Positions 34,880-64,000 of a stretch of 64,000 nt of DNA are shown one piece after another. A program made the translations under genes and the position numbers. Under the pieces are notes generated by a model. It was given only the letters and a program-made list of their open reading frames with translations. It was not told the origin of the DNA and made no database searches. Source of the DNA: an uncultured Bacteroidia bacterium (GTDB lineage Bacteria; Bacteroidota; Bacteroidia; Bacteroidales; Prolixibacteraceae); the NCBI GenBank assembly GCA_903850335.1, contig CAINLJ010000114.1:8742-72741 (forward strand), written 5' to 3'. Positions within the stretch are counted from its first letter, which is position 1, and each line of letters starts with the position of its first letter.

Positions 34880-36514
34880 TTAATTGGTCAGCGTCTTGAA
34901 CTCTGCTTTGCTGTAGGTTATTTTTTCTGCTTCATAACGCTTTATTTGCACAAGTAAACGTTTCCGGAACCATTTATAATTCAAATTTGCTTTTGGTGTC
35001 CATGCTACTTCAGCTAAAGCAGCTGCACGTGGAAAGGTCATATAATCAACATATACAGGGGTTTTCATATATGGCGTCCAAATATTACCCTGAATACCCA
35101 TAATATATCTGGACTCCTTGTTATTCAAAGATTTAGGTATTGGATCAAAATTGTAAATCTGTTCAAGTGTAACAAGACCGCCAACTGCAAGAGGTTCAGT
35201 TGAAGGATTCCCCTGATATTGATCGAAATTATAGTACTTTCCGTTTGATACAACAGTAAGATTTTTTTTTCGTACTGAAGTAATAGTATAATCTTCACCA
35301 TGCCAGGCAACTATGACCCCACCTGTTCTGCTTGTATCCTTGAGGAGTTCATCCCAGCCAACAACTTCTTTACCAAGTGAATGAATCATTTTAGTCACTC
35401 TTCCGACAAAATAGTTATGAAGTGCCTGTGTAGAGACAATACTGTCCTCTTTCATTCGGGTCTCACAATCAGGACACCTGTCCCATCGCGTGACAGGGCA
35501 ATCCGCACCTCCAATATGGAAATATTTACCAGGAAACAGCCCGGCCATTTCACTAAACACATCATTAAGAAAAATAAACGTGTTCTCTTTACCCGGACAA
35601 TAAACATCACTATACATCCCCCATCGTCCACCCACCTGATACGGAACTCCGTTGCAACCAAGCTCTGGGTAAGCAGCAAGTGCCGAAAGAGCATGACCCG
35701 GTATTCCAATCTCAGGAACAATTGTAATATACCGATCCGAAGCATATTCTACAATCTCCCGAATATCATTTTGAGAATAATATCCTGCTGCTGAGACAGT
35801 GTCTATTCCATAGCCATTGGCAAGATGACCTCTAAGAGTATTGGTCCGTACTGAACCAACCTCAGTAAGCCGCGGATATTTCTTAATCTCTATTCGCCAT
35901 CCCTGATCATCAGCTAAATGCCATTGAAAAGTATTAAATTTATGCATTGCCATCTCATCCAGGAACTTTAGTATATACTCCTTGGGCATAAAATGGCGGC
36001 TTACATCAAGCATTAATCCGCGCCAGGCAAATCGCGGGGCATCTTTTATGTCTACTGCCGGAAGAATGATCTCACCAACTTGTTTTGGTGATGGAGGCAT
36101 TAGCTGGAACAAGGTTTGAACACCATAAAACAGACCATTTGCAGCAGCTGCCTCAATTAAGACACCATCAGGTAAAACTGAAAGATGATAATCCTCTTTC
36201 CCCAGATTTAATGTAGGATCCAATTTAAGAAATACAGACTGCTTTACACCAAATTCGTACGCCGTAATACCTAAATTCGCTATTCCAAAATACCGTTCCA
36301 GGTGGCTTGTCAAAAATCCGGCTATGTGTCGTAATTGTTCATTTTCATTGCTGATACCTATTTTTGTAGCTGAATTGATCACAAATACACCATCCTTATC
36401 AGTCCCCTCTGCAGGTTGCGGAATGATTCGTATTACTGGTCTGGGCAGAGGTTCTTTACAAGATCCAAGAAATAGAATCAGACAAACTGGAAACAATATT
36501 CGAAGCAAGTTCAT
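34880..36514 (-). CDS. beta-N-acetylhexosaminidase (GH20)
   Basis: 544 aa with a lipoprotein-type signal (LFLGSC). The GH20 core includes RGLMLDVSRHF, FQWHLADDQGWRIEIKKYPRLTE and a later HIGGAD-type region. Confidence 0.85.
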   Translation of the reverse strand: MNLLRILFPVCLILFLGSCKEPLPRPVIRIIPQPAEGTDKDGVFVINSATKIGISNENEQLRHIAGFLTSHLERYFGIANLGITAYEFGVKQSVFLKLDPTLNLGKEDYHLSVLPDGVLIEAAAANGLFYGVQTLFQLMPPSPKQVGEIILPAVDIKDAPRFAWRGLMLDVSRHFMPKEYILKFLDEMAMHKFNTFQWHLADDQGWRIEIKKYPRLTEVGSVRTNTLRGHLANGYGIDTVSAAGYYSQNDIREIVEYASDRYITIVPEIGIPGHALSALAAYPELGCNGVPYQVGGRWGMYSDVYCPGKENTFIFLNDVFSEMAGLFPGKYFHIGGADCPVTRWDRCPDCETRMKEDSIVSTQALHNYFVGRVTKMIHSLGKEVVGWDELLKDTSRTGGVIVAWHGEDYTITSVRKKNLTVVSNGKYYNFDQYQGNPSTEPLAVGGLVTLEQIYNFDPIPKSLNNKESRYIMGIQGNIWTPYMKTPVYVDYMTFPRAAALAEVAWTPKANLNYKWFRKRLLVQIKRYEAEKITYSKAEFKTLTN

Positions 36515-36556
36515 TTATCGGGTAATTTATATTTCCAAAAGCTCAAAAGTATAAAA

Positions 36557-37909
36557 TTAATTATTCTTCGACCGGATTCCTCTAAGAAGAATAAAACCAT
36601 TTAAAACGAATCCAATGATTATTAAGGTATTGCCAAATACTGCATTCATGTTTAAGGAAATAATTTTCCCTGCCAGTGCTACACTGCCCCCGGTTATCAT
36701 TGCCGCAGAACTCCACCTTTTACTGGCAGTAAAACCCAAAAGTCCGGCTATTGTGGGAATAATAAAGCTACCGGAAAAGATAGTCAGAGCAAGAAGCAGT
36801 GACTGGATAATAGAATGAACACTCAATGATAATAGAATACTGAGTAGTCCCGTAACAAGCATAACGATCTTGGTATTTCGTAATGAGCTACTTTTCTCAA
36901 GCCCTTTTGATATCGTGTCACTGACAATTGTGGAGGTAGTCATCAATGTTGTCGATCCTGTTGACATAACAGCAGATAACAGAGCGGCCACAAGTAAACC
37001 AATTCCCCAATCAGGTAGCTTATTCATCATTACCGGAATTAATGCCGATCCGTTATGATTTAAAACTTCCGGGAATTTAAAGGTGGCAAAGACCCCTAAG
37101 AAAGTTATGCACAATGAAAATGGTATTAATATAATGGCACTAATCAGAACACTTCTTCTTGCAACAATTTCATTTTCAGCACAAAATATCCGGGAATATA
37201 TATCCGGACCAACAACAAATGTCGAAGAGTAAGTCAGAATAAGAACTACAAGATCAAAAGGATGAAAACCATTATTAAAAGGAAATTTCAAGGCAGTCAT
37301 TTTTACCGGTGACACGGGCTCGGTGAAGTAAACGTACACGGCAGTTAACACGATCCCCCCAATAATAATAAATGCCTGGTAAAGATCAGTTTTAAGTACC
37401 GATATCTGCCCTCCGATAACCGTATAAAAAATAAAAACGGAACCCGCACCCCATACTCCGATAGAATAATCAAGGCCAGTAAAACCAGCCAATATTTTGG
37501 CAGCTCCGATGATCTGTGCGGCTATAATTCCAATCCAGGCAACAGAAATTATAAAGGAGGAAATCATTTTTGCCTCTGAGCCATAGTAATCGCCAATCAT
37601 TTGTGGGAGTGTATAACTACCCTGACGTCTTACAAGCATAGATACCGGAACCAACAAAAAAAGCCCAAATGAGGCACATAACAAAAGCCAGGATGCTGCC
37701 CAACCCTGTGTTAAAGTAAGATCAGCAGTGCCGAGGATAGCAGAACTTCCGAGTATGGTTGCAAGTAAAGACCCTGTTATCTGCCATATATTTCCTCGCT
37801 TTCCAGCGACATAGTAATCACTTCCTGTCTTTATCCTGCGGGATGAGATAATGCCTGTAAGGATCATTGAAAATACATACAGTATGATTATGAAGTATTT
37901 AAGCATCAC
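36557..37909 (-). CDS. sodium:solute symporter (SSS) family transporter
   Basis: 450 aa with ~13 TM segments. The N-terminal DYYVAGKR...TGSLLAT motif is typical of SSS family members. Confidence 0.75.
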   Translation of the reverse strand: MMLKYFIIILYVFSMILTGIISSRRIKTGSDYYVAGKRGNIWQITGSLLATILGSSAILGTADLTLTQGWAASWLLLCASFGLFLLVPVSMLVRRQGSYTLPQMIGDYYGSEAKMISSFIISVAWIGIIAAQIIGAAKILAGFTGLDYSIGVWGAGSVFIFYTVIGGQISVLKTDLYQAFIIIGGIVLTAVYVYFTEPVSPVKMTALKFPFNNGFHPFDLVVLILTYSSTFVVGPDIYSRIFCAENEIVARRSVLISAIILIPFSLCITFLGVFATFKFPEVLNHNGSALIPVMMNKLPDWGIGLLVAALLSAVMSTGSTTLMTTSTIVSDTISKGLEKSSSLRNTKIVMLVTGLLSILLSLSVHSIIQSLLLALTIFSGSFIIPTIAGLLGFTASKRWSSAAMITGGSVALAGKIISLNMNAVFGNTLIIIGFVLNGFILLRGIRSKNN

Positions 37910-37936
37910 TTATCCCGGATTAATAAAAAAGTGATA

Positions 37937-38827
37937 TCATCTTTTGGGATCATGATGAGCTGAGACATGTTCACGACGGAAAGGTGGTAGAAACACCCAA
38001 TAAATTCCTCCTAATGAAATAATTGCTGAGAGCAGAAAAAACATTACACTCAAGGCTATACATAATTCATTATCAAGACTCATCATCTTTGCACCTACAA
38101 GGAAAACCATTTCCCTTGCACCGATTCCACCAATAGTTATAGGCAATGCTGTAGCTATCGCAGAAACAAAAAAGAGAAACAGGTAGTCAAAAAGATCCTG
38201 ACTTTGGTGGAAAGCTGAGAGAATCATAATGGCAGAAATAAATTGCATCCCTTGTAAAGCCATTGACCACCAGAATAATCCGGCATGAATACGAAAAAAA
38301 CTTTTAAAAAAATATTTCAGTACAAGAAGATAAAATCCATATATAAAGGGAATTACAATCCATACATGTCTGGCATATTCAAGATGCAAACCTGACAAAT
38401 AGTACAAAAGGACTGTTATCATTCCTATTGCTACAAGGCCGGCAATACGGTTTACAAGCATAGTCCCAATATTCTTTTTAAGGCCGTTCTTTCGGTATTT
38501 ATTTACAAGATATACCTTATAGCCATCACCACCTATACCCCCAGGAAGGAATAAATTATAAAACATACCCAGCCAGAACAATTTAATGTTCAAGGATTGT
38601 GATATGTGTGCCCCAGTGTTGCGAAAAGAAAGATTCTGACGAAATGCTGAGAAAATAAATGAAATAACTAAAAGTATGAAAGCAATCAAAAGGTAATAAT
38701 AATTGGCTGTTGAAAATACACCCAAAACTTCTTTGATCGATATTTTTGATATAACCCACCAGATTGCACCTACTGAAACAGCAAATTTTAACAGGTTTAT
38801 AAAAGCCTTTTTAAGTTTTATTTTCAC
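37937..38827 (-). CDS. UPF0104 / lysylphosphatidylglycerol-synthase-TM-like (flippase-like) membrane protein
   Basis: 296 aa with ~8 TM segments. The N-terminal KFAVSVGAIWWVISKISIKEV and the GGIGGDGYKV and GGIGAREM motifs resemble UPF0104. Confidence 0.5.
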   Translation of the reverse strand: MKIKLKKAFINLLKFAVSVGAIWWVISKISIKEVLGVFSTANYYYLLIAFILLVISFIFSAFRQNLSFRNTGAHISQSLNIKLFWLGMFYNLFLPGGIGGDGYKVYLVNKYRKNGLKKNIGTMLVNRIAGLVAIGMITVLLYYLSGLHLEYARHVWIVIPFIYGFYLLVLKYFFKSFFRIHAGLFWWSMALQGMQFISAIMILSAFHQSQDLFDYLFLFFVSAIATALPITIGGIGAREMVFLVGAKMMSLDNELCIALSVMFFLLSAIISLGGIYWVFLPPFRREHVSAHHDPKR

Positions 38828-38841
38828 TTTAAATTATTCTT

Positions 38842-39951
38842 CTATAACTTAATAAATACCTTACGCTTGTAAAGAAAATAACAAATCCACCATAATCCGG
38901 CCCATACCGTTAATGACAAAACAATATCATTTGTAAGCACGCCAGCAGGCAGGAAAACTGCATTAATAAAAGGTTTAACAATTGCCTCAATCCAGCTATT
39001 CCCATTCGTGTGTGCAAAAAGATAGATAAACAGTGGATTCATGCCAACTACTGCAAAAAACAGTGAGAATTTTGTGTATTTCCTGATATCAATTAACCAG
39101 TACGAAAAAGCCATTGCAATCATACACCAACCGCCACTAACAAAAACAAAAGAAGCTGTACAAATATGTTTTATAATGGGGATAAAAGGGCTAAGGGCGA
39201 AACCAACGAAGAGACCTACAATTCCGGCTAAAAGCATGATCTTGATTTTCATTTTTGGCTTCCAGTTGTTCATCAAAATCATTCCTGTTATAACGCCCCA
39301 TATCGTATGCGCTGCAGTTGGAATTGCATTAAATGCAACCCAGTGGCCTCCTCCAGGCATCCCGGTCAATGCAAGGTCAAACCAGGATCCGAAGTTTTGA
39401 TCAGGGGTAAAGGGCTGGTTAAATCCACTAACATTCCAGTATAAATAAATCAACTGTGAAATTAGTATTAGTAAAAAAGAGATTATCAACTGCCATTTGA
39501 CTGTTTTGCGCATCAATAAGAATGCAATAAAGTATGATACAGACAGTTGTGCAAGAACATTTGTGAACCTAAAAGTTATCTTTCCAGGTCCAATACAATA
39601 TAAAGCCCAACCTAATATAAGAAGCATCAGTGAACGGATTACAGCATGACGTAAAGTCACATTCCAGCTATCTCCTCGGTTCCACCTTTTAGTCATTGAG
39701 AAAGGCATCGAAACCCCGACAATAAACATGAAAAACGGCTGGATCAAGTCCCAAAAATGTAACCCAATCCATTCAACATGTTCAAGCTGGTGTCCTATTG
39801 CCGAAATAATCGTCCCGTTAAAAAAAGGATCAGTTAAAGTATTGAAGAAACCTGAGAACTCACCTATTAGCATGAACATAGTAAATCCCCTGAAAAAATC
39901 AATAGAGAGCATCCTGTGCTGTTCCTGTCCCGGGAGGTTTGTATTACTCAT
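38842..39951 (-). CDS. DUF5009/DUF1624 membrane acyltransferase-like protein (HGSNAT / NagX-like)
   Basis: 369 aa with ~11 TM segments. The N-terminal RMLSIDFFRGFTMFMLI motif is characteristic of the family. Confidence 0.6.
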   Translation of the reverse strand: MSNTNLPGQEQHRMLSIDFFRGFTMFMLIGEFSGFFNTLTDPFFNGTIISAIGHQLEHVEWIGLHFWDLIQPFFMFIVGVSMPFSMTKRWNRGDSWNVTLRHAVIRSLMLLILGWALYCIGPGKITFRFTNVLAQLSVSYFIAFLLMRKTVKWQLIISFLLILISQLIYLYWNVSGFNQPFTPDQNFGSWFDLALTGMPGGGHWVAFNAIPTAAHTIWGVITGMILMNNWKPKMKIKIMLLAGIVGLFVGFALSPFIPIIKHICTASFVFVSGGWCMIAMAFSYWLIDIRKYTKFSLFFAVVGMNPLFIYLFAHTNGNSWIEAIVKPFINAVFLPAGVLTNDIVLSLTVWAGLWWICYFLYKRKVFIKL

Positions 39952-40094
39952 TTTATTATCTGGGTACGTTAATAATGCTTTTGGTATTCAACCAAATTAA
40001 GCCACTCCTTCAGTATAGTTCCCTGAAAAAGTGGCTTAAAGATAACCCAAAATTTATTTCAAATTATCAATTAGCAGGTTACAAAAAATTACTA

Positions 40095-43000
40095 TTACTT
40101 TTTACTTAATTCCTTTAATCTGATATTTTTAAATTTAACTACTGAACCATGTCCAAGGAAACCAATATGACCTTTTTCACGGAAAAGTCCGGGGTGGTCC
40201 TTGTGGTCCATCGGACCATTCCTGGCAGCTTCTTTGATATCACCATCAAGAATGACAGTACCATTGAGCGTAACTTTAATCCTTGTACCCTTAGCAATAA
40301 CTTCCTCATAATTCCATTGTCCAACAGGCTTTAAAAATCCGCGTTTAGCAGGAATAATCCCATACACTGAACCATGATACTGATAAGGCTGAAGATTAGC
40401 ATATACAGGATCCTCATTATCCAAAACCTGAATTTCCATTCCCTGATAAGCTGCATCACCTTCTAATGGAGCACGTATTCCAAGACCGTTATTGGCAGCC
40501 GGAGTTAGCTGAAATTCCAAACGGATGGCAAAATCGCTATATTCACCGGCAGTAAAAATATTTCCATGTGATGGACCATTATCAAGATGCAAGACTATTT
40601 CACCATTTTCGACATGGTAGTCAACAAGATTTCCTGTCCACCCATCAAAGCTTGTACCATTAAAAAGAGCCTTGAATCCATCTTTGGACTCTTCTTCAGA
40701 AACTGTGTATGCATCATTATTTAACTCTTTAACATAAATATCCCGGAAAGCCAGGTCCGTTCCATGCGCCTGAAGTTCAATCCCCTCTTTTGCAAAGATA
40801 GGAAGTGAACGGTCCCAATAGTTTTCAAGGATAACATTATCAACAACAAGCTCACCGTTAAGGTAAACGGTGACCTTATCCCCGATCATCCTGATTCGGA
40901 AAGTATTCCAATCTCCAATAGGATTATCTCCAACTTTCAAAGGTTTAGAGGCATTTTTCTGATTATTGTACAAGCCACCGGAACCTACCTGGGCACCTAC
41001 TTCGACACGCGAAGTATCCCAGATTTGAACCTGTGGAGAACCGCGGAGATAAATACCACTGTCACCTTTTTTTGTAATTCGCCAGTCTACAACCATTTCA
41101 AAGTCACCATATTGTTTTACCGAACATAGGTTATCGCCTGAACCATTGAAGACAATACAGCCATCCTTAGCCGCCCAGTTAGTTCCCAGATTCAGATTAG
41201 CATCTGCTTGCTTTTTTGCTAATTCCTTAGGATCCATTTTCTTACGCGTGATCGGATTACCTACCAATGCCTGCCATCCACTGAGATCCTTTCCATTAAA
41301 CATAGGCACAAGCCCATCTTCATACGACATCTCATCCAGGTATTTATTAATTCTAGCCCTGTCGTATTCACTTTCGCTGCCTGAAAGACTATTTAAAGCC
41401 TTGTTCAACGCGTCACGAACCACAACACCTGAGAGTCCGGCTTTCCCCTGACCAGGCAGTGCTATAGACATTACAGATTGTGCAGCCTCTTCCTTTAATT
41501 CTGAATCACCCAGAAAGGAAGAGACAGTAACTAATGAAAGAAAAGTCTTAACCTGACCCATTGATTTTATAATCAATTCTTTATCTTTAGAATTTTTGGC
41601 GAACTCAATGATCTTACGGTATTGCAATAATTTCTGATCTTCGGGTAGTGAAGATGTTTTTATCTGTCGAACAAAACCATTTATCGCATTTGAGAGTTTA
41701 ATACCTGTCGATGACTTACAAATTTCGTACAATGCCGCGGATGCACTATGATCCTTCCAGTTGATAAGTGCCTTAAGAGCATCCTCTCTTTCCTGTTCAA
41801 CTGCAGATGAAATAAATCCTGTAACCGATTTAAGTGCCATTGAACCACCTAATCGAGGTAATATTTCTATAATTCTGCTTTTTACAGCAACCTTATCAAG
41901 CTGTCTGATTAAGGGTGCTGTCTTTTCATTCTCATTGGCTAAATCAGCCGAAGCATTTACCAAAGCCTCCTGAATATTACTAATCTTATCGCAATCTTCG
42001 GTGGCATAAAGAAGTTTTAACAGCCTGTCGGTTTGCTGCGGAGTAGCAGTATTTTTCATTGCCGAATAGGCTGCAGATTTTATTGTTGGATTTGAACTCT
42101 CAGTATATTTAAAAATCTGATCAAAATATCTTTTCCCTGATTTAGCCCCAATAAGTGAAATTATCTCGCTCTTTGACTTCTCAGGTGCACTTTCAAGAAT
42201 AGCGGCAACAGGATCCAAACCTTTTTCATCGATTAAAGACATTAAATTAGCAGTAACGCATGCAGGTTCTACACCTTTGTTCAAAAGAATTGTCAAATCA
42301 CTAATGGATTCTTTCCCTTTTAGTTTTGCATAGGCAGATATTGCAGCCTGACTGACTTCAGCTGAGGGACTTGCAAATTGTTTTTTAATGAAATCAAGAG
42401 AATACAAATCGCCCTTTTTACCTAACATAGTAATGATCTCAGCTTTTTGTTCATCCGGGGCCTTATTAGCTTTTACTGTCCAGGCCTTTGTCTGGGCCTG
42501 CTGACTCTTTCCGGCAAGATTCAAAACTGCAAATCTGAAAGCCTTATCGGTACTGTCAAATACCTTCAAGAGTAAGGACTGAGCCTCTTTTTCGAAATAT
42601 GCATTATAAATTGAAAGCGCAGTTGATTTGGTATGTAATTGGGCAGATGTTTTGCAAAGACTGATTATTTCGTTACAGGCTTTTGCACATAACGGAAGAT
42701 TTCCGGTTTCTCCTAGTCTTTGTGCATAAGACACAACCGCGGAAGTAGCATTTGAAGGTTCATAAACAAAACCAGCCTTAGTTGCTGCAGCAAAAAGGGG
42801 TTCAAATGATTCGGGGGCACCAATAGACGCAATTGCTGCGAGTGATACTTTTTTAAGATTAAGGTTTTCTGAAGAAATATTTTTTAAAATCTCAGGATTA
42901 GAAGCTGTAACATGTAACTCGCCAAGTGCCCTGGTAATTGTGACAAGAGAAGTACCTTCTGCCCCAATTAAGGCTTTTACCAATTCATTTTTAGCTGCAT

Positions 43001-43487
43001 CACTATTAACTGAAGTCAGCACAAAAACAGCCGGTTCACATAAATCATTATTTTTAAGGTACTGGCTTACAGAACCAACTGCCTTATCCTTACCTATTAA
43101 CTTAAGTTGACGCATGAAAAATGCCTTAACTTCAGGATCTGTAGCTGATTCCAACGCATGAATAAATTCAGTTTCAGCAAAAACCCTTTTATCTTCTTTG
43201 CCAGGCTGACTGACATATCTCGTAAGTCCGTTTAGTGCAAAGACTACAGCCGTATTATCACCTTTTCCCGAAGGAGTCATTTTACCGGCAATTTGTTGAA
43301 AACCATCGGTTCCCAGAGATATCAGTTCTTCAGCCAGTTTATCTCTTTGCTGCAGATTGTTTGAAGGCATCTGTGCCAGCATGTCTGCAATTTTAGTATT
43401 CAATGTCCTGTTATCCTGTGCCTCCAGACCTGAGACAATTGATAACAAGAAAAATATCACCAAAAGAAAATTAAATATCTTGTTCAT
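40095..43487 (-). CDS. secreted giant HEAT/ARM-repeat protein with two C-terminal DUF1080 (3-keto-disaccharide-hydrolase-like) domains
   Basis: 1130 aa with a signal peptide. About 700 aa are helical repeats. DUF1080 copy 1 reads LVPMFNGKDLSGWQ...YGDFEMVVDWRITKKGDSGIYLRG...QIWD. Copy 2 reads FKALFNGTSFDGWTG...YSDFAIRLEFQ...NNGLGIR...GHIGFLGHGSVVKFKNIRLKEL. Confidence 0.7.
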   Translation of the reverse strand: MNKIFNFLLVIFFLLSIVSGLEAQDNRTLNTKIADMLAQMPSNNLQQRDKLAEELISLGTDGFQQIAGKMTPSGKGDNTAVVFALNGLTRYVSQPGKEDKRVFAETEFIHALESATDPEVKAFFMRQLKLIGKDKAVGSVSQYLKNNDLCEPAVFVLTSVNSDAAKNELVKALIGAEGTSLVTITRALGELHVTASNPEILKNISSENLNLKKVSLAAIASIGAPESFEPLFAAATKAGFVYEPSNATSAVVSYAQRLGETGNLPLCAKACNEIISLCKTSAQLHTKSTALSIYNAYFEKEAQSLLLKVFDSTDKAFRFAVLNLAGKSQQAQTKAWTVKANKAPDEQKAEIITMLGKKGDLYSLDFIKKQFASPSAEVSQAAISAYAKLKGKESISDLTILLNKGVEPACVTANLMSLIDEKGLDPVAAILESAPEKSKSEIISLIGAKSGKRYFDQIFKYTESSNPTIKSAAYSAMKNTATPQQTDRLLKLLYATEDCDKISNIQEALVNASADLANENEKTAPLIRQLDKVAVKSRIIEILPRLGGSMALKSVTGFISSAVEQEREDALKALINWKDHSASAALYEICKSSTGIKLSNAINGFVRQIKTSSLPEDQKLLQYRKIIEFAKNSKDKELIIKSMGQVKTFLSLVTVSSFLGDSELKEEAAQSVMSIALPGQGKAGLSGVVVRDALNKALNSLSGSESEYDRARINKYLDEMSYEDGLVPMFNGKDLSGWQALVGNPITRKKMDPKELAKKQADANLNLGTNWAAKDGCIVFNGSGDNLCSVKQYGDFEMVVDWRITKKGDSGIYLRGSPQVQIWDTSRVEVGAQVGSGGLYNNQKNASKPLKVGDNPIGDWNTFRIRMIGDKVTVYLNGELVVDNVILENYWDRSLPIFAKEGIELQAHGTDLAFRDIYVKELNNDAYTVSEEESKDGFKALFNGTSFDGWTGNLVDYHVENGEIVLHLDNGPSHGNIFTAGEYSDFAIRLEFQLTPAANNGLGIRAPLEGDAAYQGMEIQVLDNEDPVYANLQPYQYHGSVYGIIPAKRGFLKPVGQWNYEEVIAKGTRIKVTLNGTVILDGDIKEAARNGPMDHKDHPGLFREKGHIGFLGHGSVVKFKNIRLKELSKK

Positions 43488-43552
43488 CAGATTATTATTT
43501 TAAATCGTAAACCATTTTGGTTTAAATATGATAAGGAGTGCTATCGTATAAT

Positions 43553-44824
43553 TTAAATTGTTGTCCATGGAGCCCTCATCGGCTGGTGAATTAACCTGTT
43601 GGCTGCTTCATCATTGATAAACTCCTGTTTTTCAGGATCAAAATTCAATGTCCTGCCTAATCTTACGGCCAGAATACCCATGTTCACCATTGTGCATGAA
43701 CGGAAACCATTCAATTCATTCAAAGCGAATTTTTGTCTTGTCCTTACAGAATCGCTGAATGTTGTAATCCGTGCTTCTGGATCAGGAAGTGTTTCAATAA
43801 ACTGTTTTAGTTTAGGGATATCCGATTCGAAGCCTTTAAATATTTTTCCATGTGGACCCTCAATATATGCGGCATCTTTATCCTTATTCTCACCATCAAG
43901 AATAATTTTACAACCATCAGCGTAGGTATATTCAATCCGGCGCCAGGATCCAACGGCATCTTCATGTTGCTGCGGGGCATCAACCTCAACCTTTACAGGA
44001 CTTGTGTTGTCTTTCCCAAGCAGATACTGAACGGGATCAAGGTAATGCTGGCCCATATCTCCCAGTCCGCCACCATCATAATCCCAGTATCCACGGAATT
44101 TAGAGTGAACACGTTCAACATTATATGGCCGGTAAGGCGCAGGACCTAACCAAAAATCATAGTCCAATTCTTCAGGTATCGGTTGGGGAGAAAGATTCGT
44201 CTCACCACGCCAGTAAAATTTCCAGTCAAAACCAGTATTACCGCTTACTGTCACCTTTAAAGGCCAACCAAGAATCCCACTTTCAATGACTTTTTTAAGC
44301 GGTTTGACTTCCGTTCCCAGACCGTAGAAGTTATCTTTAAACCTAAACCAGGTATTCAATCTGAACATACGTCCATGTTTATTCACCTCTTCCACTACCC
44401 GCTGACCTTCGCCTATTGTACGAGTCATAGGTTTTTCACACCAGATATCTTTCCCTGCACGCGCAGCTTCGATAGCCATCAACCCATGCCAGTGAGGTGG
44501 TGTAGCAATGTGCACAATGTCGATTTCAGGGCGTAGCAGAAGTTCACGATAGTCATGAAATGTCTGTACACTGTTTGGAATCATAGACTGTGCCAATTGA
44601 AGATGCTTTTTGTCAACATCACAAATAGCGACAACTTTCGTCCCTTCGTACGATATATGTCCGCGGCCCATGCCACCGGTACCTATGATTGCTTTTGTAA
44701 GCTGATCACTGGGTGCAACATAACCGGTACCGCCTAATACATGACGGGGAACGATCATCATTCCTGCCACAGTTACTGCCGATGCCTTAAGAAAACCTCT
44801 GCGATTTGGTGAGTGCTTATCCAT
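43553..44824 (-). CDS. TAT-exported Gfo/Idh/MocA family oxidoreductase
   Basis: 423 aa with the twin-arginine signal NRRGFLKASAVTVAGMM. The Rossmann region is AIIGTGGMGRGH and the EKP motif is CEKPM. Confidence 0.8.
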   Translation of the reverse strand: MDKHSPNRRGFLKASAVTVAGMMIVPRHVLGGTGYVAPSDQLTKAIIGTGGMGRGHISYEGTKVVAICDVDKKHLQLAQSMIPNSVQTFHDYRELLLRPEIDIVHIATPPHWHGLMAIEAARAGKDIWCEKPMTRTIGEGQRVVEEVNKHGRMFRLNTWFRFKDNFYGLGTEVKPLKKVIESGILGWPLKVTVSGNTGFDWKFYWRGETNLSPQPIPEELDYDFWLGPAPYRPYNVERVHSKFRGYWDYDGGGLGDMGQHYLDPVQYLLGKDNTSPVKVEVDAPQQHEDAVGSWRRIEYTYADGCKIILDGENKDKDAAYIEGPHGKIFKGFESDIPKLKQFIETLPDPEARITTFSDSVRTRQKFALNELNGFRSCTMVNMGILAVRLGRTLNFDPEKQEFINDEAANRLIHQPMRAPWTTI

Positions 44825-44924
44825 ATAATTTGATTATTTTGTGTGGAAATTCGAATTCAGCGAAGCAAAAATAAGATTTACTTGGATACCGCCAAGTACT
44901 TTTAAGAAGTATTTAAGTTTCTAT

Positions 44925-45944
44925 TTAACGTATCTCCTCTGAACCGTCCTTATATCGCGCAAACCGGCCTCTTTCACGAGGGTGAACCTGATCACGATGA
45001 GGCCAGGGCCATCCACCAAACTCTGTTAAACGGTAATCAGACATTGCCTGCTGAATTTCAGACTGAGAATTCATTACAAAGGGGCCATATTGAACAACAG
45101 GCTCTTCAATTGGTCTTCCTTGAAGTAACAGGATCTGACTTTCTGTATTGCCATTTATTATCTGTGTTCTTTGATTTCCCCTTAGCTCAACAGCCTTATT
45201 GGCTTCCAGCTTTGTGCCATTAATACTTAGTGAATCTCCTAAATGAAAATATATTGTTCTGTTTATTCCCTCCCCGGCAAGTGGTACTTCCCAATGACTT
45301 TCGGGATCCATCCTGATTGTCCAGACTGCAACTTCATTTTCGGGATCCGAAGCCCATGAATCAGGCGTTACAGAGACAGAATTAATCCCGTCAATTGCCC
45401 CTGCAATTACATTAATCTCAATACTCTTCCCATTCTCATCGGCAATTTTATGAACAGGAATTTCCTCAGACCAAAGCATCTTGAAATAAGGATCGGCAAA
45501 CTTATTCTTTCTGGAAAGATTGAGCCAAATCTGAAAAAGCTCTGTCGGATTTCCTGAATGCTGATTCAAAAGAGGAAACATTTCGCAATGCTGCAAGCCG
45601 GATCCGGCAGTCATCCATTGGACATCACCCATGCCATACCTGCCGGCTTGCCCATGCGAGTCGGAATGATCAACAAATCCATTCCTGACAATCGTAATTG
45701 TTTCAAAACCCCTGTGCGGATGAACAGGGAATCCTGGAATACGGTTTCCATGATACATCCTCCATCCGTCCTTCATGGTAAAATCCTGACCAATATCTCT
45801 CCCGGCAAGTGAGGCTGCAGGACCCATTTGCTCATTCCCCTGCGGATAATCGTCCAGATGATGAGCACAAAAAAGAAACGGATTTACTGCCGGCCACATG
45901 AAACCAAGTGGCTTTACACGTATAATAACATCATTTTCAATCAT
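44925..45944 (-). CDS. pirin family protein
   Basis: 339 aa with the bicupin metal-site motif GFPVHPHRGFETITIV...DVQWMTAGSGLQHCE. Confidence 0.85.
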   Translation of the reverse strand: MIENDVIIRVKPLGFMWPAVNPFLFCAHHLDDYPQGNEQMGPAASLAGRDIGQDFTMKDGWRMYHGNRIPGFPVHPHRGFETITIVRNGFVDHSDSHGQAGRYGMGDVQWMTAGSGLQHCEMFPLLNQHSGNPTELFQIWLNLSRKNKFADPYFKMLWSEEIPVHKIADENGKSIEINVIAGAIDGINSVSVTPDSWASDPENEVAVWTIRMDPESHWEVPLAGEGINRTIYFHLGDSLSINGTKLEANKAVELRGNQRTQIINGNTESQILLLQGRPIEEPVVQYGPFVMNSQSEIQQAMSDYRLTEFGGWPWPHRDQVHPRERGRFARYKDGSEEIR

Positions 45945-45960
45945 ATAATTTAAATTAATA

Positions 45961-46923
45961 TTAATTTATATTTCTCTTTTCTGAACAATATATTTTGAAT
46001 TTAGTATAAAAAGGTTCCTGAAATTGCCCCCACAACCATGCAACTAACGAGGTATGGGTATTCCTGCATGAATTCATAATGGTCTCGTAGCCTTGTGAGC
46101 CATTGTCTGCAAATTCTCCTATTAAAACCGGTGCGATATTCCTGTTATTAAGATCATTTAATATTTTCTCTATCGCAGAACCCTGAATATTCCAATAGGT
46201 ATCATAGGCATGAATATCAAACACAATATTTTTTCGTCCTTTCAATAATTCCGAACCTTTTTCAAGAAATGGTTCATGCCCCTGCCCCATTGCATTACCA
46301 CAAACAACAACAATATTATTTGCACCTGTCTCACGTAAACTATCAATCATCGATGAGGTATCGAATAACCATTGTGAGCTCGGTGCGGTCTTTGTCTTAT
46401 CCCAGTGATAAGGTTCATTCCATATTCCAAACCAAACATCACTTTGGTTGGCGAAAAGTTTTGCAATCTGCTTCCATCTAGTAATAATAGCCTGATATCT
46501 AGTATCCTGCGAAGGAATTACACCAAGCAGCTGACACCCGGGATAAGGGGTCGAACCACCCGGAAAAGCATCAGAATCATACCAGAAGGCAGTCAGGATT
46601 ACTACAAATCCCTTTTTTCTAGCCAGAGACACAATAGATTGAAGGTCATAGTCCGTTGAACATTTCATGTCGATACATTCCCTCGCTATATCCATTCCCC
46701 ACGATGAAATTTCATCATAATTCAAGTCCCAATGACTCATTTTATTAGTCCCCCTGAACTCCCAGGACTTATTATTTCTCATGAGTTTAGAGCCATTGGT
46801 AGAAAATACCTGACTCTTTATAACCGGAAAAGATTCCGGAGGAAAAGGATTTACACAACCTTCAATTACCTGACAGGCAATTAAAAATGAGAGGCAAGAC
46901 AATACAAGGCTAAAATAACTCAC
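45961..46923 (-). CDS. glycoside hydrolase family 5 (cellulase-family) lipoprotein
   Basis: 320 aa with lipobox FLIAC. The acid/base context is FGIWNEPY and the nucleophile context is LIGEFA. Confidence 0.75.
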   Translation of the reverse strand: MSYFSLVLSCLSFLIACQVIEGCVNPFPPESFPVIKSQVFSTNGSKLMRNNKSWEFRGTNKMSHWDLNYDEISSWGMDIARECIDMKCSTDYDLQSIVSLARKKGFVVILTAFWYDSDAFPGGSTPYPGCQLLGVIPSQDTRYQAIITRWKQIAKLFANQSDVWFGIWNEPYHWDKTKTAPSSQWLFDTSSMIDSLRETGANNIVVVCGNAMGQGHEPFLEKGSELLKGRKNIVFDIHAYDTYWNIQGSAIEKILNDLNNRNIAPVLIGEFADNGSQGYETIMNSCRNTHTSLVAWLWGQFQEPFYTKFKIYCSEKRNIN

Positions 46924-58944: not shown

Positions 58945-59406
58945 TTATCCATTTACTTCAATGTCAAGTTGTCTTCCTTCCGCAAATGCATTCTTGTCCA
59001 TTCCATCACCAACCCCAATTCCAATGGCTAAACCTATAGGTAACCCTATTCCTAAATAAGCCATATTTCCCAGGCTGGTTCCAAAGGCAACACCAATTGG
59101 AATGCCAAATGCAGCCATTCCCAGACTCATCCACATGTTCCGATAGTAGTTTCTTGGTGTGAGTTTAAGATCTTTTTCCAGCAATTTGATTATTCTTTGC
59201 AGTCTATGTTTAATTTGTTTCCTCAATTCGTTTCCAATATTTGAAATAGAATTGATTTCATCAATGTTTTTGTTGATTGAAACAACTATTTCATCTGGTA
59301 ATTCCCTTTTTTCCAGTTCAATTAATAGTTTCGTGAATTGAGCATAAATTTCATTCAATTTGATTTCCTTATTGTCTGATCGCTGGTTTAATTCATGTAG
59401 TTTCAT
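58945..59406 (-). CDS. hypothetical protein with helical N-domain and C-terminal glycine-zipper membrane segment
   Basis: 153 aa. The C-terminus is LGMAAFGIPIGVAFGTSLGNMAYLGIGLPIGLAIGIGVGDGM. I recognise no family. Confidence 0.5.
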   Translation of the reverse strand: MKLHELNQRSDNKEIKLNEIYAQFTKLLIELEKRELPDEIVVSINKNIDEINSISNIGNELRKQIKHRLQRIIKLLEKDLKLTPRNYYRNMWMSLGMAAFGIPIGVAFGTSLGNMAYLGIGLPIGLAIGIGVGDGMDKNAFAEGRQLDIEVNG

Positions 59407-59665: not shown

Positions 59666-60163
59666 TTACACATTATTCTTTATTACCTTTACTTTCTCCA
59701 TTACTTCGCTACTCATTTTATTTTTGTATTCAAGCATTTTTTGACGAAATATTTTTTCCCGGACAGAAAGTATTTGAATTGAAAGCAATCCAGCATTTTT
59801 AGCACCATTCAATGCAACCGTTGCTACTGGCACTCCTCCTGGCATTTGAAGTATTGATAAAATAGAGTCCCATCCATCAATAGAGTTAGACGATTTAATT
59901 GGAACACCAATTACAGGCAAAGGCGAAATAGCAGCGACCATGCCAGGCAAATGTGCAGCACCTCCAGCACCAGCAACAATAACCTCAATACCTTTTTTAT
60001 GGGCATTTTCTGCAAAGTCGTATAGTCTTTTGGGAGTGCGGTGGGCAGAAACAATTGTAATTTCATAAGGAACACCAAATTCTTTTAAAATTTCTGCTGC
60101 CTGATTCATAATTGGCATATCTGAGTCGGAGCCCATAATAATGCTTACAAGAGGGTTTACCAT
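59666..60163 (-). CDS. purE: 5-(carboxyamino)imidazole ribonucleotide mutase (class I PurE)
   Basis: 165 aa with [17 protein letters not shown] and [13 protein letters not shown] motifs. It overlaps purK by 7 nt. Confidence 0.9.
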
Positions 60164-61311
60164 GACTTAACTCTTAATTTTTGCCTTACAATACATGCTT
60201 TTTGTTTTGCTTCATCAATAGAAGTAGCAATGACGGTTACATGCCCCATTTTCCGGTATGGTTTTGTAATTCTTTTCCCATATAAATGAATTTTCACGCC
60301 TTCGATGCTCATGCAATCGGTCAATCCTTCATATTTTACAGATCCTTCATAGTCAGGTTCACCTAAAAGATTAATCATTACAGAAGGCATTTTTAGCTTT
60401 GTGCTACCCAGCGGAAAATTAAATATAGCTCTTAATAATTGCTCATATTGTGAAGTTTCAATACTTTCTATAGTATGATGACCACTGTTGTGGGGACGTG
60501 GTGCAATTTCATTAATCCAAACATCATTATATTTATCCACAAACATTTCCACAGATAAAAGTCCGCAAAGGTTAAGTGAAGCTATCAGCTTAATCGCAAT
60601 TCCATTTGCGTGCTGAAGAATTTTTTCATCCAATGAGGAAGGACAAATTAATTTCTCAACCATATTTGCTTCATTAAATTCCATCTCTGCCACCGGAAAA
60701 CATTTTGTTTCTCCTTTGCAATTTCGTGCAACTATGACTGAAATCTCTGTTTGTATCTCAACCAGTTTTTCTATAATAGAATCACCATCTAATAAGTTCT
60801 TGAGGTCATATTGTGTATGTATGATCGCAACTCCTTTTCCATCGTAACCGCCTTTTCTTAATTTCTGTACAAAAGGAAATGGAATTTCACCAGTTGTAGC
60901 AGCTTCAATTATTTCAGCTTTGCTTTTAAACAGTAGAAATTGTGCGGATGGAATTTGATTGTTTCGATAAAACTCTTTCTGCAAGCCTTTATCCCAAATA
61001 ATTCGCAAAGTATCAGGGTCTGGAAATATCTTTTTCCCTTCGGATTTTAACTTCTGTAAGGCTTCGATGTTGACATTCTCAATTTCAAATGTTATCATAT
61101 CAACCATTTCTCCAAAACGAATCACATCTTCATAATCGAGTTGATTTCCTCTGACATAGTTAGTACAGCATGTTGAGGCAGGGCAATGGTGATCGGTATC
61201 CAAAATAAATGTCTTAATATCCCAGTTACTTGCAGCCAGAACCAGCATTTTGCCTAGCTGGCCGCCTGCAATAATTCCAAGTTTAAAATCTGATGTTACA
61301 AGTTGCTCCAT
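60157..61311 (-). CDS. purK: 5-(carboxyamino)imidazole ribonucleotide synthase (N5-CAIR synthetase)
   Basis: 384 aa with [13 protein letters not shown], an ATP-grasp core ([15 protein letters not shown]) and [12 protein letters not shown]. Confidence 0.9.
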
Positions 61312-61341
61312 TGTACATGTGTTGATATTGTTTATCTTTTA

Positions 61342-62304
61342 CTAAATGTAATTGACTATTAAATAATACAGGGGCATTCCAATTGTTATATTAAAAGGAA
61401 ATGTAATACCCAAAGCCATTGGAATATACAAACCCGGATCGGATTTGGGTGCAGCAAAACGCATGGCGGCAGGCACCGCAATATATGAAGCGCTTGCAGC
61501 AAGAATAGCAAAAATGAATCTGTTCCCAATATCATGAACAAAAAGTCCGCTTAAGGCTGCTACTATACAACCATTTACCATTGGAATCACTATTGCAAAT
61601 GCTGTTGCAAACCAGCCATATATTCTAAAGGAAGAGAATCTTCGGGCTGTAACCATCCCCATTTCTAAAAGGAAAATGGCAAGGAATCCTTTAAAAATAT
61701 CAGTTGTAAATGGTTTTATTCCTTCCGCTTGTTTAGTGTCAGCAATCAGCCCAATAATTAAACTTCCGATGATCATCAACACACTTCCGTTAGTGAATGA
61801 ATGTTTAATAGTTTGGGTTAATTTCCCTTTGCTACGTGTATCAGTATCAAATTTCATCATCAGAATTATACCCATAATAATTGCAGGTGATTCCATTAAT
61901 GCCATCACCGCAACCATGTGACCGCCAAATACAATTTTCTGTGATTCGAGAAATGAAACAGCAGCCACAAAAGTTACTGCACTTACCGAACCATAAGCAG
62001 CAGCGACTGCACCTGCATCACTGATACTCATTTTGCGTTTAAGGATGAAAAAAGTGTATAATGGAATTACAGAAGCGATTAAAACTCCAAATATCAACGA
62101 ATAAATTATTTCTGCAGTAAAACCACTGTGTGCTAATTCCTGTCCACCTTTAAAACCAATAGAGAAAAGCAAATACAATGAAATAAATTTGCTTATTGAT
62201 TCAGGAATTTCAAGGTCGCTTTTAACTATGACAGCAAAAGTTCCCAGTGCAAAAAATAATAATGTTGGATTTGTTAGATTTGAAATTAGAATTTGAAAGT
62301 CCAT
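61342..62304 (-). CDS. SbtA-like sodium-dependent bicarbonate transport family permease (Sbt_1/DUF897)
   Basis: 320 aa with ~10 TM segments. The N-terminus LLFFALGTFAVIVKSDLEIPESISKFISLYLLFSIGFKGGQEL matches the family as recalled. Confidence 0.65.
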   Translation of the reverse strand: MDFQILISNLTNPTLLFFALGTFAVIVKSDLEIPESISKFISLYLLFSIGFKGGQELAHSGFTAEIIYSLIFGVLIASVIPLYTFFILKRKMSISDAGAVAAAYGSVSAVTFVAAVSFLESQKIVFGGHMVAVMALMESPAIIMGIILMMKFDTDTRSKGKLTQTIKHSFTNGSVLMIIGSLIIGLIADTKQAEGIKPFTTDIFKGFLAIFLLEMGMVTARRFSSFRIYGWFATAFAIVIPMVNGCIVAALSGLFVHDIGNRFIFAILAASASYIAVPAAMRFAAPKSDPGLYIPMALGITFPFNITIGMPLYYLIVNYI

Positions 62305-62339
62305 GATTTTATCTTTTTAAAGTTTATGTTAACAATGAT

Positions 62340-63041
62340 TTATTTTATAAAACTCACTTTGCCAGTGGTAATGTCATAGAATGCACCTACAATTTTCACT
62401 TTGCCTTGTTTTACTAATTCATTTATTACAGAACTTTGTTCTAAAATATCGGCAATTGTAAATTCTACATTTTTTATTGAAGTCTGAGAAACCATCAAAT
62501 CCATATTTGATCTGTCGCCTGTAATTGCAGGTTTAATATGGTCAACAAGCTGAGTAAGGTTACCTAAATCAACATTGTCAATTGCTCCTTTTACGGCTCC
62601 GCATTTATTGTGCCCCATTACTACTATTAGTTTGGTTCCTTTTACCTTGGTTGCAAACTCCATACTTCCTAAAATATTTGGGTCTTCAATATTGCCTGCA
62701 ACTCTTGCTACAAAAATATTTCCTATGCCCTGGTCAAAAATTATTTCCGGTGGGATACGAGAATCTAAACAGGAAAGAACGAGTGAATGAGGGTGCTGGT
62801 CATCTTTTGTTTCCTCAATTTCTTCTTTGTAGTTCGTGTTAATTTGTTTACTGTCCAAAAATCGTTGATTACCATTTTTGAGCTCTGCAAGTGCATCATC
62901 CGGAGTTTTAATATCAACATTTTTAGGCGGAGCAAGTGATTTTCTTGATGCCGTATGATCGGGTTGACTATTTGCGATTATAAATGAGAGACTTAATAAT
63001 ATCGCAATCAATGTAGTTGGAATGAATCTTGTCATTTTCAT
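62340..63041 (-). CDS. beta-class carbonic anhydrase with signal peptide (periplasmic)
   Basis: 233 aa with signal MKMTRFIPTTLIAILLSLSFIIANS. The zinc-site motifs are SCLDSRIPPE and VMGHNKCGAV. Confidence 0.85.
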   Translation of the reverse strand: MKMTRFIPTTLIAILLSLSFIIANSQPDHTASRKSLAPPKNVDIKTPDDALAELKNGNQRFLDSKQINTNYKEEIEETKDDQHPHSLVLSCLDSRIPPEIIFDQGIGNIFVARVAGNIEDPNILGSMEFATKVKGTKLIVVMGHNKCGAVKGAIDNVDLGNLTQLVDHIKPAITGDRSNMDLMVSQTSIKNVEFTIADILEQSSVINELVKQGKVKIVGAFYDITTGKVSFIK

Positions 63042-63061
63042 GATGTTTTAATTTTTGTTTC

Positions 63062-63107
63062 TGCAAAGATGTGTACTCTTATTTATATATTTTTATTTAT
63101 CTTTGCA
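63062..63107. promoter_or_regulatory. perfect 9-bp inverted repeat in the divergent promoter region
   Basis: TGCAAAGAT (63062-63070) and ATCTTTGCA (63099-63107) are separated by 28 AT-rich nt. The right arm contains TATCTTTG (63098-63105), a TAnnTTTG box 25 nt upstream of the LysR ATG. The left arm read on the minus strand is the near-match CATCTTTG. Confidence 0.4.
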
Positions 63108-63129
63108 ATGATCATCATAAATATTTTTT

Positions 63130-64000
63130 ATGGATTATACTTTCAACCAACTCCGGATATTTTTAAAAGTTACGCAAACACAAAGCGTAACGAAGGCATC
63201 CGAAGAACTGCACTTGACGCAGCCTGCAGTATCCATACAACTCAAAAATTTTCAAGACCAGTTTGAAATTCCGCTAACAGAAATAGTTGGCCGAAAAATA
63301 TTCATCACTGATTTTGGTAAAGAAATTGCAGAGGCAGCGGAAAATATATTAAATCAGGTACATGCAATTAATTACAAAACACAATCTCACAAAGGTCAGT
63401 TGTCAGGTCGACTTAAAATTTCAAGTGTGTCAACTGGAAAATATGTGATTCCGTATGTATTATCTGACTTTTTACAAAAGCACGACAGCATAGAGTTACT
63501 ACTTGATGTAACCAACAAATTAAAAGTAATAAGGAGCCTTGAGAATAACGAAGTGGATTTTTCATTGGTTTCAATCCTACCTGACAGCATTAAAGTTGAT
63601 AAGATAGAATTGATGCAAAACAAATTGTATTTAGTAAGCAATACAAAGCAGAAGTTCGCAAACAAGTTGTATGATAAAACAATTTTTGAATCACTGCCTT
63701 TGATCTACAGGGAGCAAGGCTCGGGTACAAGAAAAACAATGGAAATGTTTATAAAACAAAATAATTTACCTGTAAGAAAAAAGATGGAACTTACTTCAAA
63801 TGAAGCTGTTAAACAAGCAGTAGTTGCAGGTCTGGGTTGCTCAATTATGCCATTGATTGGCATGAAGAATGAATTACAAAATGGGGAATTACAAATTATA
63901 CCTGTAATAGGATTTCCAATAAAATCAGTATGGAATTTAATCTGGATGAAAGGGAAAAATCATTCTCCTGTTGCTCTATCACTATTAGATTATGTAAGAA
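63130..64000 (+). CDS. LysR-family transcriptional regulator (partial; continues past window end)
   Basis: Not in the track because it runs off the edge. My translation from ATG 63130 is MDYTFNQLRIFLKVTQTQSVTKASEELHLTQPAVSIQLKNFQDQFEIPLTEIVGRK... (HTH), followed by a LysR substrate-binding domain (LSGRLKISSVSTGKYVIP...). The frame stays open to position 64000. Confidence 0.85.
   Translation, partial: MDYTFNQLRIFLKVTQTQSVTKASEELHLTQPAVSIQLKNFQDQFEIPLTEIVGRKIFITDFGKEIAEAAENILNQVHAINYKTQSHKGQLSGRLKISSVSTGKYVIPYVLSDFLQKHDSIELLLDVTNKLKVIRSLENNEVDFSLVSILPDSIKVDKIELMQNKLYLVSNTKQKFANKLYDKTIFESLPLIYREQGSGTRKTMEMFIKQNNLPVRKKMELTSNEAVKQAVVAGLGCSIMPLIGMKNELQNGELQIIPVIGFPIKSVWNLIWMKGKNHSPVALSLLDYVR

Follow-up and report, generated by a model that had tools for sequence, protein, structure and literature searches.

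The stretch of DNA analysed here, referred to as the window, comprises 64,000 nucleotides of contig CAINLJ010000114.1 from an uncultured Bacteroidia bacterium. At its end lies a string of four co-directional genes encoding a beta-carbonic anhydrase (CA), a permease of the Sbt_1/SbtA family and the purine biosynthesis enzymes PurK and PurE, with the gene of a LysR-type regulator transcribed divergently from them (Table 1). A listing of the open reading frames (ORFs) reproduces the coordinates, the shared direction and the spacings given in an initial annotation of this DNA, with 35 nt between the CA and Sbt_1 genes, 30 nt between Sbt_1 and purK, and a 7-nt overlap of purK and purE. Furthermore, Pfam and NCBIfam profiles uphold all five of the gene identities proposed there. 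The divergent LysR gene is likewise recovered as a plus-strand frame, and the full protein is present in an identical contig that extends past the window (L001; L-numbers denote the loci and contigs fetched for comparison). The identical gene string recurs in independent assemblies from ENA and Logan as well as in several metagenome runs from lake water, and it is thus not an assembly artefact.

Table 1. Genes and putative control elements at the locus, in window coordinates
Feature	Position	Strand	Remarks
Beta-CA gene, product presumed exported	63041-62340	minus	233 aa; first of the four co-directional ORFs
Sbt_1 permease gene	62304-61342	minus	ORF of 320 aa
purK	61311-60157	minus	ORF of 384 aa
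purE	60163-59666	minus	ORF of 165 aa
lysR	63130-64000	plus	frame runs into the window end, with 290 of 307 codons present
Divergent control region	63042-63129		88 nt, between lysR and the CA gene
Putative LysR-binding dyad, ATAA-N8-ATAT	63085-63100	minus	alignment A2, columns 30-45; family consensus ATAA-N8-TTAT
Extra TTAT half-site	63117-63120		conserved element of A2
Putative -7 box of the lysR promoter, TATCTTTG	63098-63105	plus	exact TAnnTTTG; overlaps the dyad
Putative -7-like box of the operon promoter, CATCTTTG	63064-63071	minus	stops 22 nt short of the CA start codon

The initial annotation had proposed comparing the products of the first two genes with the Pfam profiles Pro_CA and Sbt_1 (PF05982), and both match, with E-values of 9.6e-39 and 8.3e-116, respectively. 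The CA also lies above the cut-off of the NCBIfam subfamily PRK15219 (230.6 bits against 221), and its nearest relatives in the PDB are beta-CAs, such as 2a5v at 1.7e-29. The zinc-site residues C91, D93, R95, H144 and C147 are all in place, within CLDSR at residues 91-95 and HNKC at residues 144-147, which are the CxDSR and HxxC motifs reported earlier. The N-terminus, for which a signal peptide had been claimed, begins with MKMTR and continues with a single hydrophobic segment (residues 9-23) and then IIA/NS. This signal-peptide-like pattern, as read from the sequence, is also present in seven CA orthologues (e.g. ...AQA/QK), and from it the protein is presumed to be exported to the periplasm. 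The start chosen by the gene caller lies two codons downstream, giving 231 aa.

With regard to the permease, the Sbt_1 match (TC 2.A.83) scores 387 bits against a cut-off of 27 and covers positions 1-307 of the 308 in the profile. The protein shares 66-93% identity with thousands of proteins from Bacteroidota, and its sole solved relative is the Synechocystis SbtA (7cye, E 1.4e-25). The match to SbtA falls into two stretches, one for each of the inverted repeats, residues 7-172 and 166-314 of the permease against residues 12-177 and 215-365 of SbtA. The SbtA residues 178-214, which belong to the cytoplasmic loop region of about 40 residues that binds SbtB, have no counterpart in the permease. 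The locus also lacks an SbtB/PII-like gene, as had been stated before, with purK following directly after Sbt_1; no PII-like gene occurs among the annotated recurrent neighbours of the fetched loci, where many single-locus neighbours were left unscanned. The earlier description of a 10-transmembrane SbtA-like protein stands as regards the family, while the count of ten rests on homology to SbtA and rough hydropathy. In SbtA, the main chain at F110, G111, A112, A320 and S322 forms the Na+ site, and S114, Y140, S324 and S327 contact docked HCO3- (PMC8352866, from which the residues for this mapping were taken). The Na+-site residues align to Y104, G105, S106, A269 and S271 of the permease, and of the four docked-bicarbonate residues, S114 and S324 are retained (as S108 and S273, respectively). 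Membership of the Sbt_1/SbtA family is solid and, while the substrate is not secured by sequence alone, the permease is presumed to be a Na+/HCO3- symporter. An AlphaFold model of the permease, built from a shallow 16-sequence alignment, reached a pLDDT of 46.5 and was discarded as too poor.

By its profile matches, the third gene is purK, encoding the N5-carboxyaminoimidazole ribonucleotide (N5-CAIR) synthetase, which uses ATP and HCO3-. Its product shows the Pfam architecture RS_preATP-grasp, ATP-grasp and PurK_C and exceeds two NCBIfam equivalog cut-offs (NF004679, 372.5 against 326; TIGR01161, 351.5 against 318.4). PurE matches AIRC in Pfam (E 2.8e-64) and TIGR01162 in NCBIfam (206 against a cut-off of 149.6), and both purine calls of the initial annotation thus lie above curated cut-offs. 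The loops SAHRTP at residue 39 and AGGAAHLPG at residue 66 mark PurE as a class I enzyme, an N5-CAIR mutase. The 30-nt spacer between Sbt_1 and purK recurs in six loci, with variable sequence. PurK uses HCO3-, and PurE by itself is enough only at very high dissolved inorganic carbon (DIC); cyanobacterial purK mutants require high CO2, and PurK is the purine step that matters at low CO2 only (PMC10880623).

The full-length regulator comprises 307 aa with HTH_1 and LysR_substrate domains. Its top PDB match is 5y2v (E 3.6e-50, residues 2-290), which according to a review is the NdhR/CcmR of Synechocystis, and further matches are CmpR (5z49, 3.3e-29), a putative LysR-family regulator (8sbf, 3.1e-25) and OxyR (7e-15). 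In NCBIfam the top match is CbbR (NF045990), with 170.7 bits. This score is under the equivalog cut-off of 450, so the protein is regarded as a relative, not an orthologue, of any named regulator. Judging by these matches, it belongs in the NdhR/CcmR-CmpR-CbbR branch of carbon regulators, in agreement with the earlier point that genes for inorganic-carbon uptake are commonly under LysR control. Cyanobacterial NdhR represses sbtA/B and other carbon-uptake genes, binds ATAG-N8-CTAT and is responsive to 2-oxoglutarate (2-OG) and 2-phosphoglycolate (2-PG) (PMC13249358). Using the residue list from the same source, the effector contacts were read off an alignment of the regulator with 5y2v, whose chain numbering equals the native numbering plus 8, as checked at eight positions. 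The regulator retains each of the three 2-OG contacts that can be read, with Y105, S224 and N225 of NdhR corresponding to Y105, S223 and N224. As for the 2-PG contacts of NdhR (T101, T102, H130, N164, R195, T201 and R267), four of the seven are identical (T102, N164, R194 and T200), two are conservative replacements (S101 and K130) and one is lost (S266).

The intergenic DNA proximal to lysR aligns without gaps over 17 Bacteroidota loci whose LysR identity ranges from 55 to 100%, and the alignment (A2) contains 15 invariant and 7 near-invariant columns. A pattern derived from A2 has one match in the whole window, at 63085-63120, and one match per locus in 18 fetched loci; in 15 of these 18, namely those included in the alignment or the intergenic listing, the match falls in the gap between LysR and the operon. 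The layout of operator and twin promoters is unchanged whether the first gene is that of the CA, isocitrate dehydrogenase (Icd), DUF6671, PyrC, a small CA-like ORF or Sbt_1 itself. Such conservation clearly points to an operator element under selection. The dyad has the same spacing as the NdhR consensus, with three of the four bases in each half-site, and is also compatible with the CmpR motif TTA-N7/8-TAA (both motifs from PMC13249358). It is to this dyad that the LysR protein would bind. The -7 box of lysR is kept as CAAAnnTA in A2 columns 25-32, and a yAnnTTTGC box occupies the fixed columns 59-67, about 14 nt past the dyad, in nearly all of the 17 loci. We take TATCTTTG and the yAnnTTTGC boxes to be promoters from their match to the Bacteroidota -7 consensus TAnnTTTG, and two facing promoters of this type would thus fit within the 88-nt region.

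Beyond the control region, the exact TAnnTTTG box is lacking on the coding strand of both the CA-Sbt_1 and the Sbt_1-purK spacers, which, together with the tight packing, is compatible with a single transcript for the four genes. An Rfam scan of the whole window yielded no riboswitch or other RNA family. Scans for intrinsic terminators and sigma-70 promoters gave chance-level counts, such models being uninformative for Bacteroidota.

The neighbourhoods of related permeases were surveyed with one genome per species, which provided 80 loci from Bacteroidota, Ignavibacteria/Kapaibacteria and Acidobacteriota with permeases 66-88% identical. Neighbours were mapped by tblastn and clustering, and annotated with Pfam and NCBIfam. 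A divergent LysR gene lies upstream of Sbt_1 in 14 of the 80 loci and a full-size beta-CA gene upstream on the same strand in 7. DUF6671 is found near Sbt_1 in 8 loci, a true dihydroorotase (NF006688, 621.8 against 535) in 7 and isocitrate dehydrogenase in 5, while 4 loci carry a degenerate Pro_CA-like ORF of 150-163 aa, 8-12 nt before Sbt_1. The gene purK is directly downstream of Sbt_1 in a single species genome, that of the closest relative (L004); four further metagenome contexts bring the Sbt_1-purK-purE order to five contexts. The arrangement LysR/CA-DUF6671-Sbt_1-purK-purE is shared by L086, L095 and L004, whereas LysR and CA are lost in L084 (DedA-Sbt_1-purK-purE) and L093 (TerC-Sbt_1-purK-purE). 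A different order, purK-sua5-X-Sbt_1, appears in L094, whose permease falls in the 86-87% identity group. Taken over these varied arrangements, the neighbours of the permease include two ATP-linked bicarbonate consumers, PurK and Sua5/TsaC. A metagenome scan queried with PurK returned one partial locus only (L092), and an apparent disruption of purK in L087 turned out to be a scaffold gap of Ns. The linkage of CA, sbtA and purKE, for which the initial annotation had suggested a survey of related genomes, does exist in relatives, but in 1 of the 80 species genomes and within a single clade.

The reading that accounts best for the locus, and that we consider somewhat better than evenly probable, is a general low-inorganic-carbon response operon of a heterotrophic freshwater bacterium, which supplies bicarbonate and into which PurK and PurE have been recruited in this clade as co-expressed consumers. 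For this scheme we infer the substrate and direction of transport, the co-transcription, and the effector and sign of regulation. The NdhR/CcmR-like LysR protein would bind the ATAA-N8-TTAT-type operator between the two facing promoters and control its own gene as well as the operon, probably through a metabolite of carbon status such as 2-OG. The exported beta-CA would hydrate ambient or leaked CO2 in the periplasm, and the Sbt_1 permease would import the resulting bicarbonate, presumably with Na+. Translated from the same mRNA, PurK and PurE would then use bicarbonate and ATP to carboxylate aminoimidazole ribonucleotide (AIR), which would be the single purine step limiting at low CO2. The bicarbonate pool probably feeds all bicarbonate-dependent enzymes, and purKE would have joined, in this clade alone, a LysR/Sbt_1 cluster that is wider and modular. 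The initial annotation had seen here a dedicated supply line into the purine ring. Its inorganic-carbon side is sustained by the context of CAs, a carbon regulator and bicarbonate-using neighbours, while the dedication to purines is overstated, given the one genome in 80, the one clade and the other cargo. Since relatives attach other genes to the LysR/Sbt_1 module, the supply is more likely general than purine-dedicated. Moreover, in two lineages the Sbt_1-purKE trio has persisted although LysR and CA were lost, which argues for a link between transporter and enzyme beyond regulatory hitch-hiking.

Several observations weigh against this reading, in whole or in its purine part. The purKE link is missing from 79 of the 80 species genomes, most Sbt_1 genes have unrelated neighbours, and a neighbour-joining tree of the permeases (no bootstrap) places every Sbt_1-purK-purE locus in one clade; the link is rare and arose once, which counts against purine dedication. 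Loci with permeases of the 86-87% identity group carry the module without purKE, as LysR/CA-Sbt_1 (L005), LysR/Icd-80aa-smallCA-Sbt_1 (L090) or Icd-DUF6671-Sua5-PyrC-smallCA-Sbt_1 (L088/L089, where both Sua5, TIGR00057, and the dihydroorotase exceed equivalog cut-offs). In the permease, the other two docked-bicarbonate residues are changed, Y140 to M134 and S327 to A276, and these variant substrate-site residues are invariant in 16 Bacteroidota sequences. In the papers found by literature search the Bacteroidota Sbt_1 subgroup is untreated, PF05982 turning up in transporter-topology papers only. To our knowledge, the subgroup has not been the subject of a transport assay. At the level of transcription, one TAnnTTTG occurs inside the CA gene (62711-62718) and an internal promoter within the Sbt_1 gene is possible. 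As the 3' flank of purE folds like its shuffles (z -0.41), no terminator is recognisable after purE and none can be assigned. The runs holding the locus are all DNA metagenomes of lake water and sediment, with no RNA run found among them. Finally, strict low-CO2 control of the entire string is awkward, since purE is required at any CO2.

The main alternative, which fits the rarity of the link, is an accident of gene order, in which a real LysR-CA-Sbt_1 module has come by chance to precede the housekeeping genes purK-purE without selected coupling, the purine genes being expressed by read-through or from a promoter of their own. The confinement of the link to one clade speaks for this account, and the neighbourhoods of Sbt_1 are highly variable, most of 78 loci having no common neighbour. 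Chance proximity does happen, since in Hymenobacter lutimineralis purE-purK lies 3.8 kb from Sbt_1, which is not so in three other Hymenobacter loci. Nevertheless, the 30-nt spacer and the 7-nt overlap stay constant while PurK identity falls to 75-85%, and the trio persists through three upstream rearrangements (the loss of DUF6671 and the replacement of LysR-CA by DedA or by TerC). Independent arrangements also place purK and the bicarbonate-dependent Sua5 by Sbt_1, and by a rough judgement that involves no phylogenetic correction such linkage is above expectation for single-copy genes. On balance, an accident appears unlikely.

Members of the CPA/AT transporter superfamily carry varied substrates. 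A further alternative, which we consider quite improbable, is that the permease carries another small anion or solute, or exports bicarbonate, with the CA-permease pair serving pH/CO2 homeostasis. It would fit the altered half of the docked-bicarbonate site, the missing SbtB partner and binding loop, the position of Sbt_1 within this broad superfamily and the many Sbt_1 loci with unrelated neighbours such as RidA, PhzF, prolyl oligopeptidase and ABC transporters. Against it stand the beta-CA genes directly beside Sbt_1 in both Bacteroidota and Acidobacteriota (L004, L005, L006, L010, L011, L012, L028 and L091), the convergent CA copies at L069 and L075, the NdhR/CmpR-like regulator and the linked enzymes, which, except for Icd, consume rather than produce bicarbonate.

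The bicarbonate-supply reading can be placed beside several known systems. It is most like two of them. The first is the cyanobacterial sbtA/sbtB system with its repressor NdhR (CcmR) and its activator CmpR. This system shares the transporter family, SbtA being the only solved relative of the permease, a regulator closest to NdhR and then CmpR with kept 2-OG contacts, and a dyad of ATAG-N8-CTAT geometry upstream of the first operon gene. It differs in that the Bacteroidia host is apparently heterotrophic, SbtB and its binding loop are absent, half of the docked-bicarbonate residues are changed, and the locus opens with a presumably exported beta-CA and ends with purK-purE. The adjacent divergent regulator is arranged like cmpR, not like ndhR. 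The second is found in heterotrophs, where MpsAB/DabAB-type pumps and cytoplasmic CAs (S. aureus, B. subtilis, E. coli Can) maintain, at ambient CO2, enough bicarbonate in the cytoplasm for PurK, carbamoyl-phosphate synthase and acetyl-CoA carboxylase (bioRxiv 10.64898/2026.09.08.750065). The role proposed here is identical; the MpsAB/Dab transporters belong to an unrelated family, whereas in the Bacteroidia locus the CA is presumed exported and the transporter gene is joined in an operon to a consuming enzyme, an arrangement for which the literature search found no report with MpsAB/Dab or SbtA.

The E. coli cynR-cynTSX system resembles the locus in its divergent LysR gene, an operon led by a beta-CA and the inclusion of a membrane permease. 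However, the cyn operon detoxifies cyanate, its CynT resides in the cytoplasm and its CynX belongs to the major facilitator superfamily; CynR is among the NCBIfam matches of the regulator with 86.9 bits, far under its cut-off of 277. Within the same phylum, a CA and a putative Na+-bicarbonate transporter have been proposed to serve anaplerotic CO2 uptake in proteorhodopsin-containing Bacteroidetes (PMC4148732). That proposal likewise has a CA and Na+-dependent bicarbonate transport feeding carboxylations, but it is a gene inventory, with no regulator, operator or operon link to the consuming enzymes. In mammals, mTORC1 acts through SLC4A7 to import bicarbonate for de novo nucleotide synthesis (PMC10912719). 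Here the import of bicarbonate is tied to both purine and pyrimidine synthesis, but the proteins and their regulation are unrelated and the likeness is an analogy only. The parts of the Bacteroidia locus all come from known families, and a CA and a Na+-bicarbonate transporter have already been proposed to work as a pair for anaplerosis in Bacteroidetes; in the literature searched, no sbtA-purK operon, Bacteroidota NdhR-like regulator or operator, or modular cargo is described.

A wider version of the bicarbonate-supply reading, which we offer tentatively and with more doubt than belief, is that heterotrophic Bacteroidota possess a circuit of cyanobacterial type. An NdhR/CcmR-like regulator sensing 2-OG or a related acid in a conserved pocket, an ATAA-N8-TTAT operator and an SbtA-family importer would be combined with modular low-CO2 cargo that differs between lineages (exported CA, degenerate small CA-like partner, DUF6671, Icd as a source of 2-OG, and the bicarbonate- or carbamate-dependent enzymes PurK-PurE, Sua5/TsaC and dihydroorotase), wiring bicarbonate import into nucleotide and tRNA-modification synthesis, and the window would hold the purine-wired variant. 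Inorganic-carbon acquisition and sensing in non-autotrophs have been studied in few organisms, such as E. coli (Can) and Firmicutes (MpsAB/Dab). If the circuit is real, an NdhR-like regulator would control an importer of the SbtA family in abundant freshwater Bacteroidota, and the carbon-sensing logic of cyanobacteria would reach into heterotrophs. The short conserved operator and the few linked genes would then make a directly testable regulon, and the joining of purK to the operon would show, by clean genetic evidence, that under ambient CO2 the carboxylation of AIR is a pressure point. Additionally, the uncharacterised DUF6671 and the small CA-like ORF would gain a functional neighbourhood.

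Small ORFs of 150-175 aa precede Sbt_1 at L010:1806-2279, L012:5501-5992, L037:5538-5990, L089:2679-3161 and L090:5508-6035. They lie 8-12 nt upstream of Sbt_1, except that the called ORF overlaps Sbt_1 in L090, and their similarity to Pro_CA is weak (best 2.5e-6). The one copy inspected by eye, that of L089, is without the CxDxR and HxxC zinc motifs. These ORFs could encode a permease partner that is not catalytic, holding the place of the cyanobacterial SbtB. DUF6671 is a recurrent member of the LysR/Sbt_1 cluster, present at L004:5124-5960, L086:4124-4960 and L088:1354-2190 and in 8 of the 80 genome loci. The protein of 278 aa matches nothing in NCBIfam and carries four CxxC pairs towards its C-terminus. 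In the closest relatives its gene stands between CA and Sbt_1, where the window has the 35-nt gap alone, and the 462-nt CA-Sbt_1 gap of L005 contains no DUF6671 remnant. At L090:3409-4845, L088:1-1077, L034, L011 and L035, the conserved LysR operator is followed first by the gene of an NADP-type isocitrate dehydrogenase (Iso_dh, 478 aa), whose product, 2-OG, is the co-repressor of the related cyanobacterial NdhR. At L069:7066-7530 and L075:7268-7651, a beta-CA paired with a gene of about 520 aa is convergent to Sbt_1. The latter may encode a SulP-type transporter, and several inorganic-carbon genes may thus be clustered there.

Metagenome-assembled genomes of Acidobacteriota (Pyrinomonadaceae/Blastocatellia; L006, L011, L014, L016, L018, L022, L025 and L078) encode Sbt_1 proteins 73-82% identical to the Bacteroidota protein. 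They form a separate clade, several of them in a common RidA-Sbt_1-PhzF context. The similarity suggests either unusually strong conservation or transfer across phyla.

The remainder of the window resembles ordinary chromosome of a low-GC, polysaccharide-degrading Bacteroidota heterotroph, and from the sampled genes the host appears to be heterotrophic. No other pur, inorganic-carbon, RubisCO or carboxysome gene was found among the window genes sampled. Positions 34880-46923 hold a carbohydrate-related cluster of ordinary heterotroph content, with a GFO/IDH/MocA oxidoreductase, a pirin, GH5 and GH20 proteins and a sodium:solute symporter. Within it, 40095-43487 (minus strand) encodes a protein of 1130 aa with HEAT repeats and a 3-keto-disaccharide hydrolase domain. 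An ORF of 153 aa (58945-59406, minus strand) lies 259 nt past purE on the same strand and combines a coiled N-terminal half with a glycine-rich, hydrophobic C-terminus. It was considered as a further member of the operon and left out, since it has no Pfam or NCBIfam match and the only places where it was seen are copies of the contig from which the window comes (L001 and L002). On the other side of the locus, L001:1-7742 carries beyond LysR a class A beta-lactamase-like gene, DUF418, DUF3267, an amidohydrolase and an IS66-family transposase. The operon thus lies near a variable, possibly mobile stretch.

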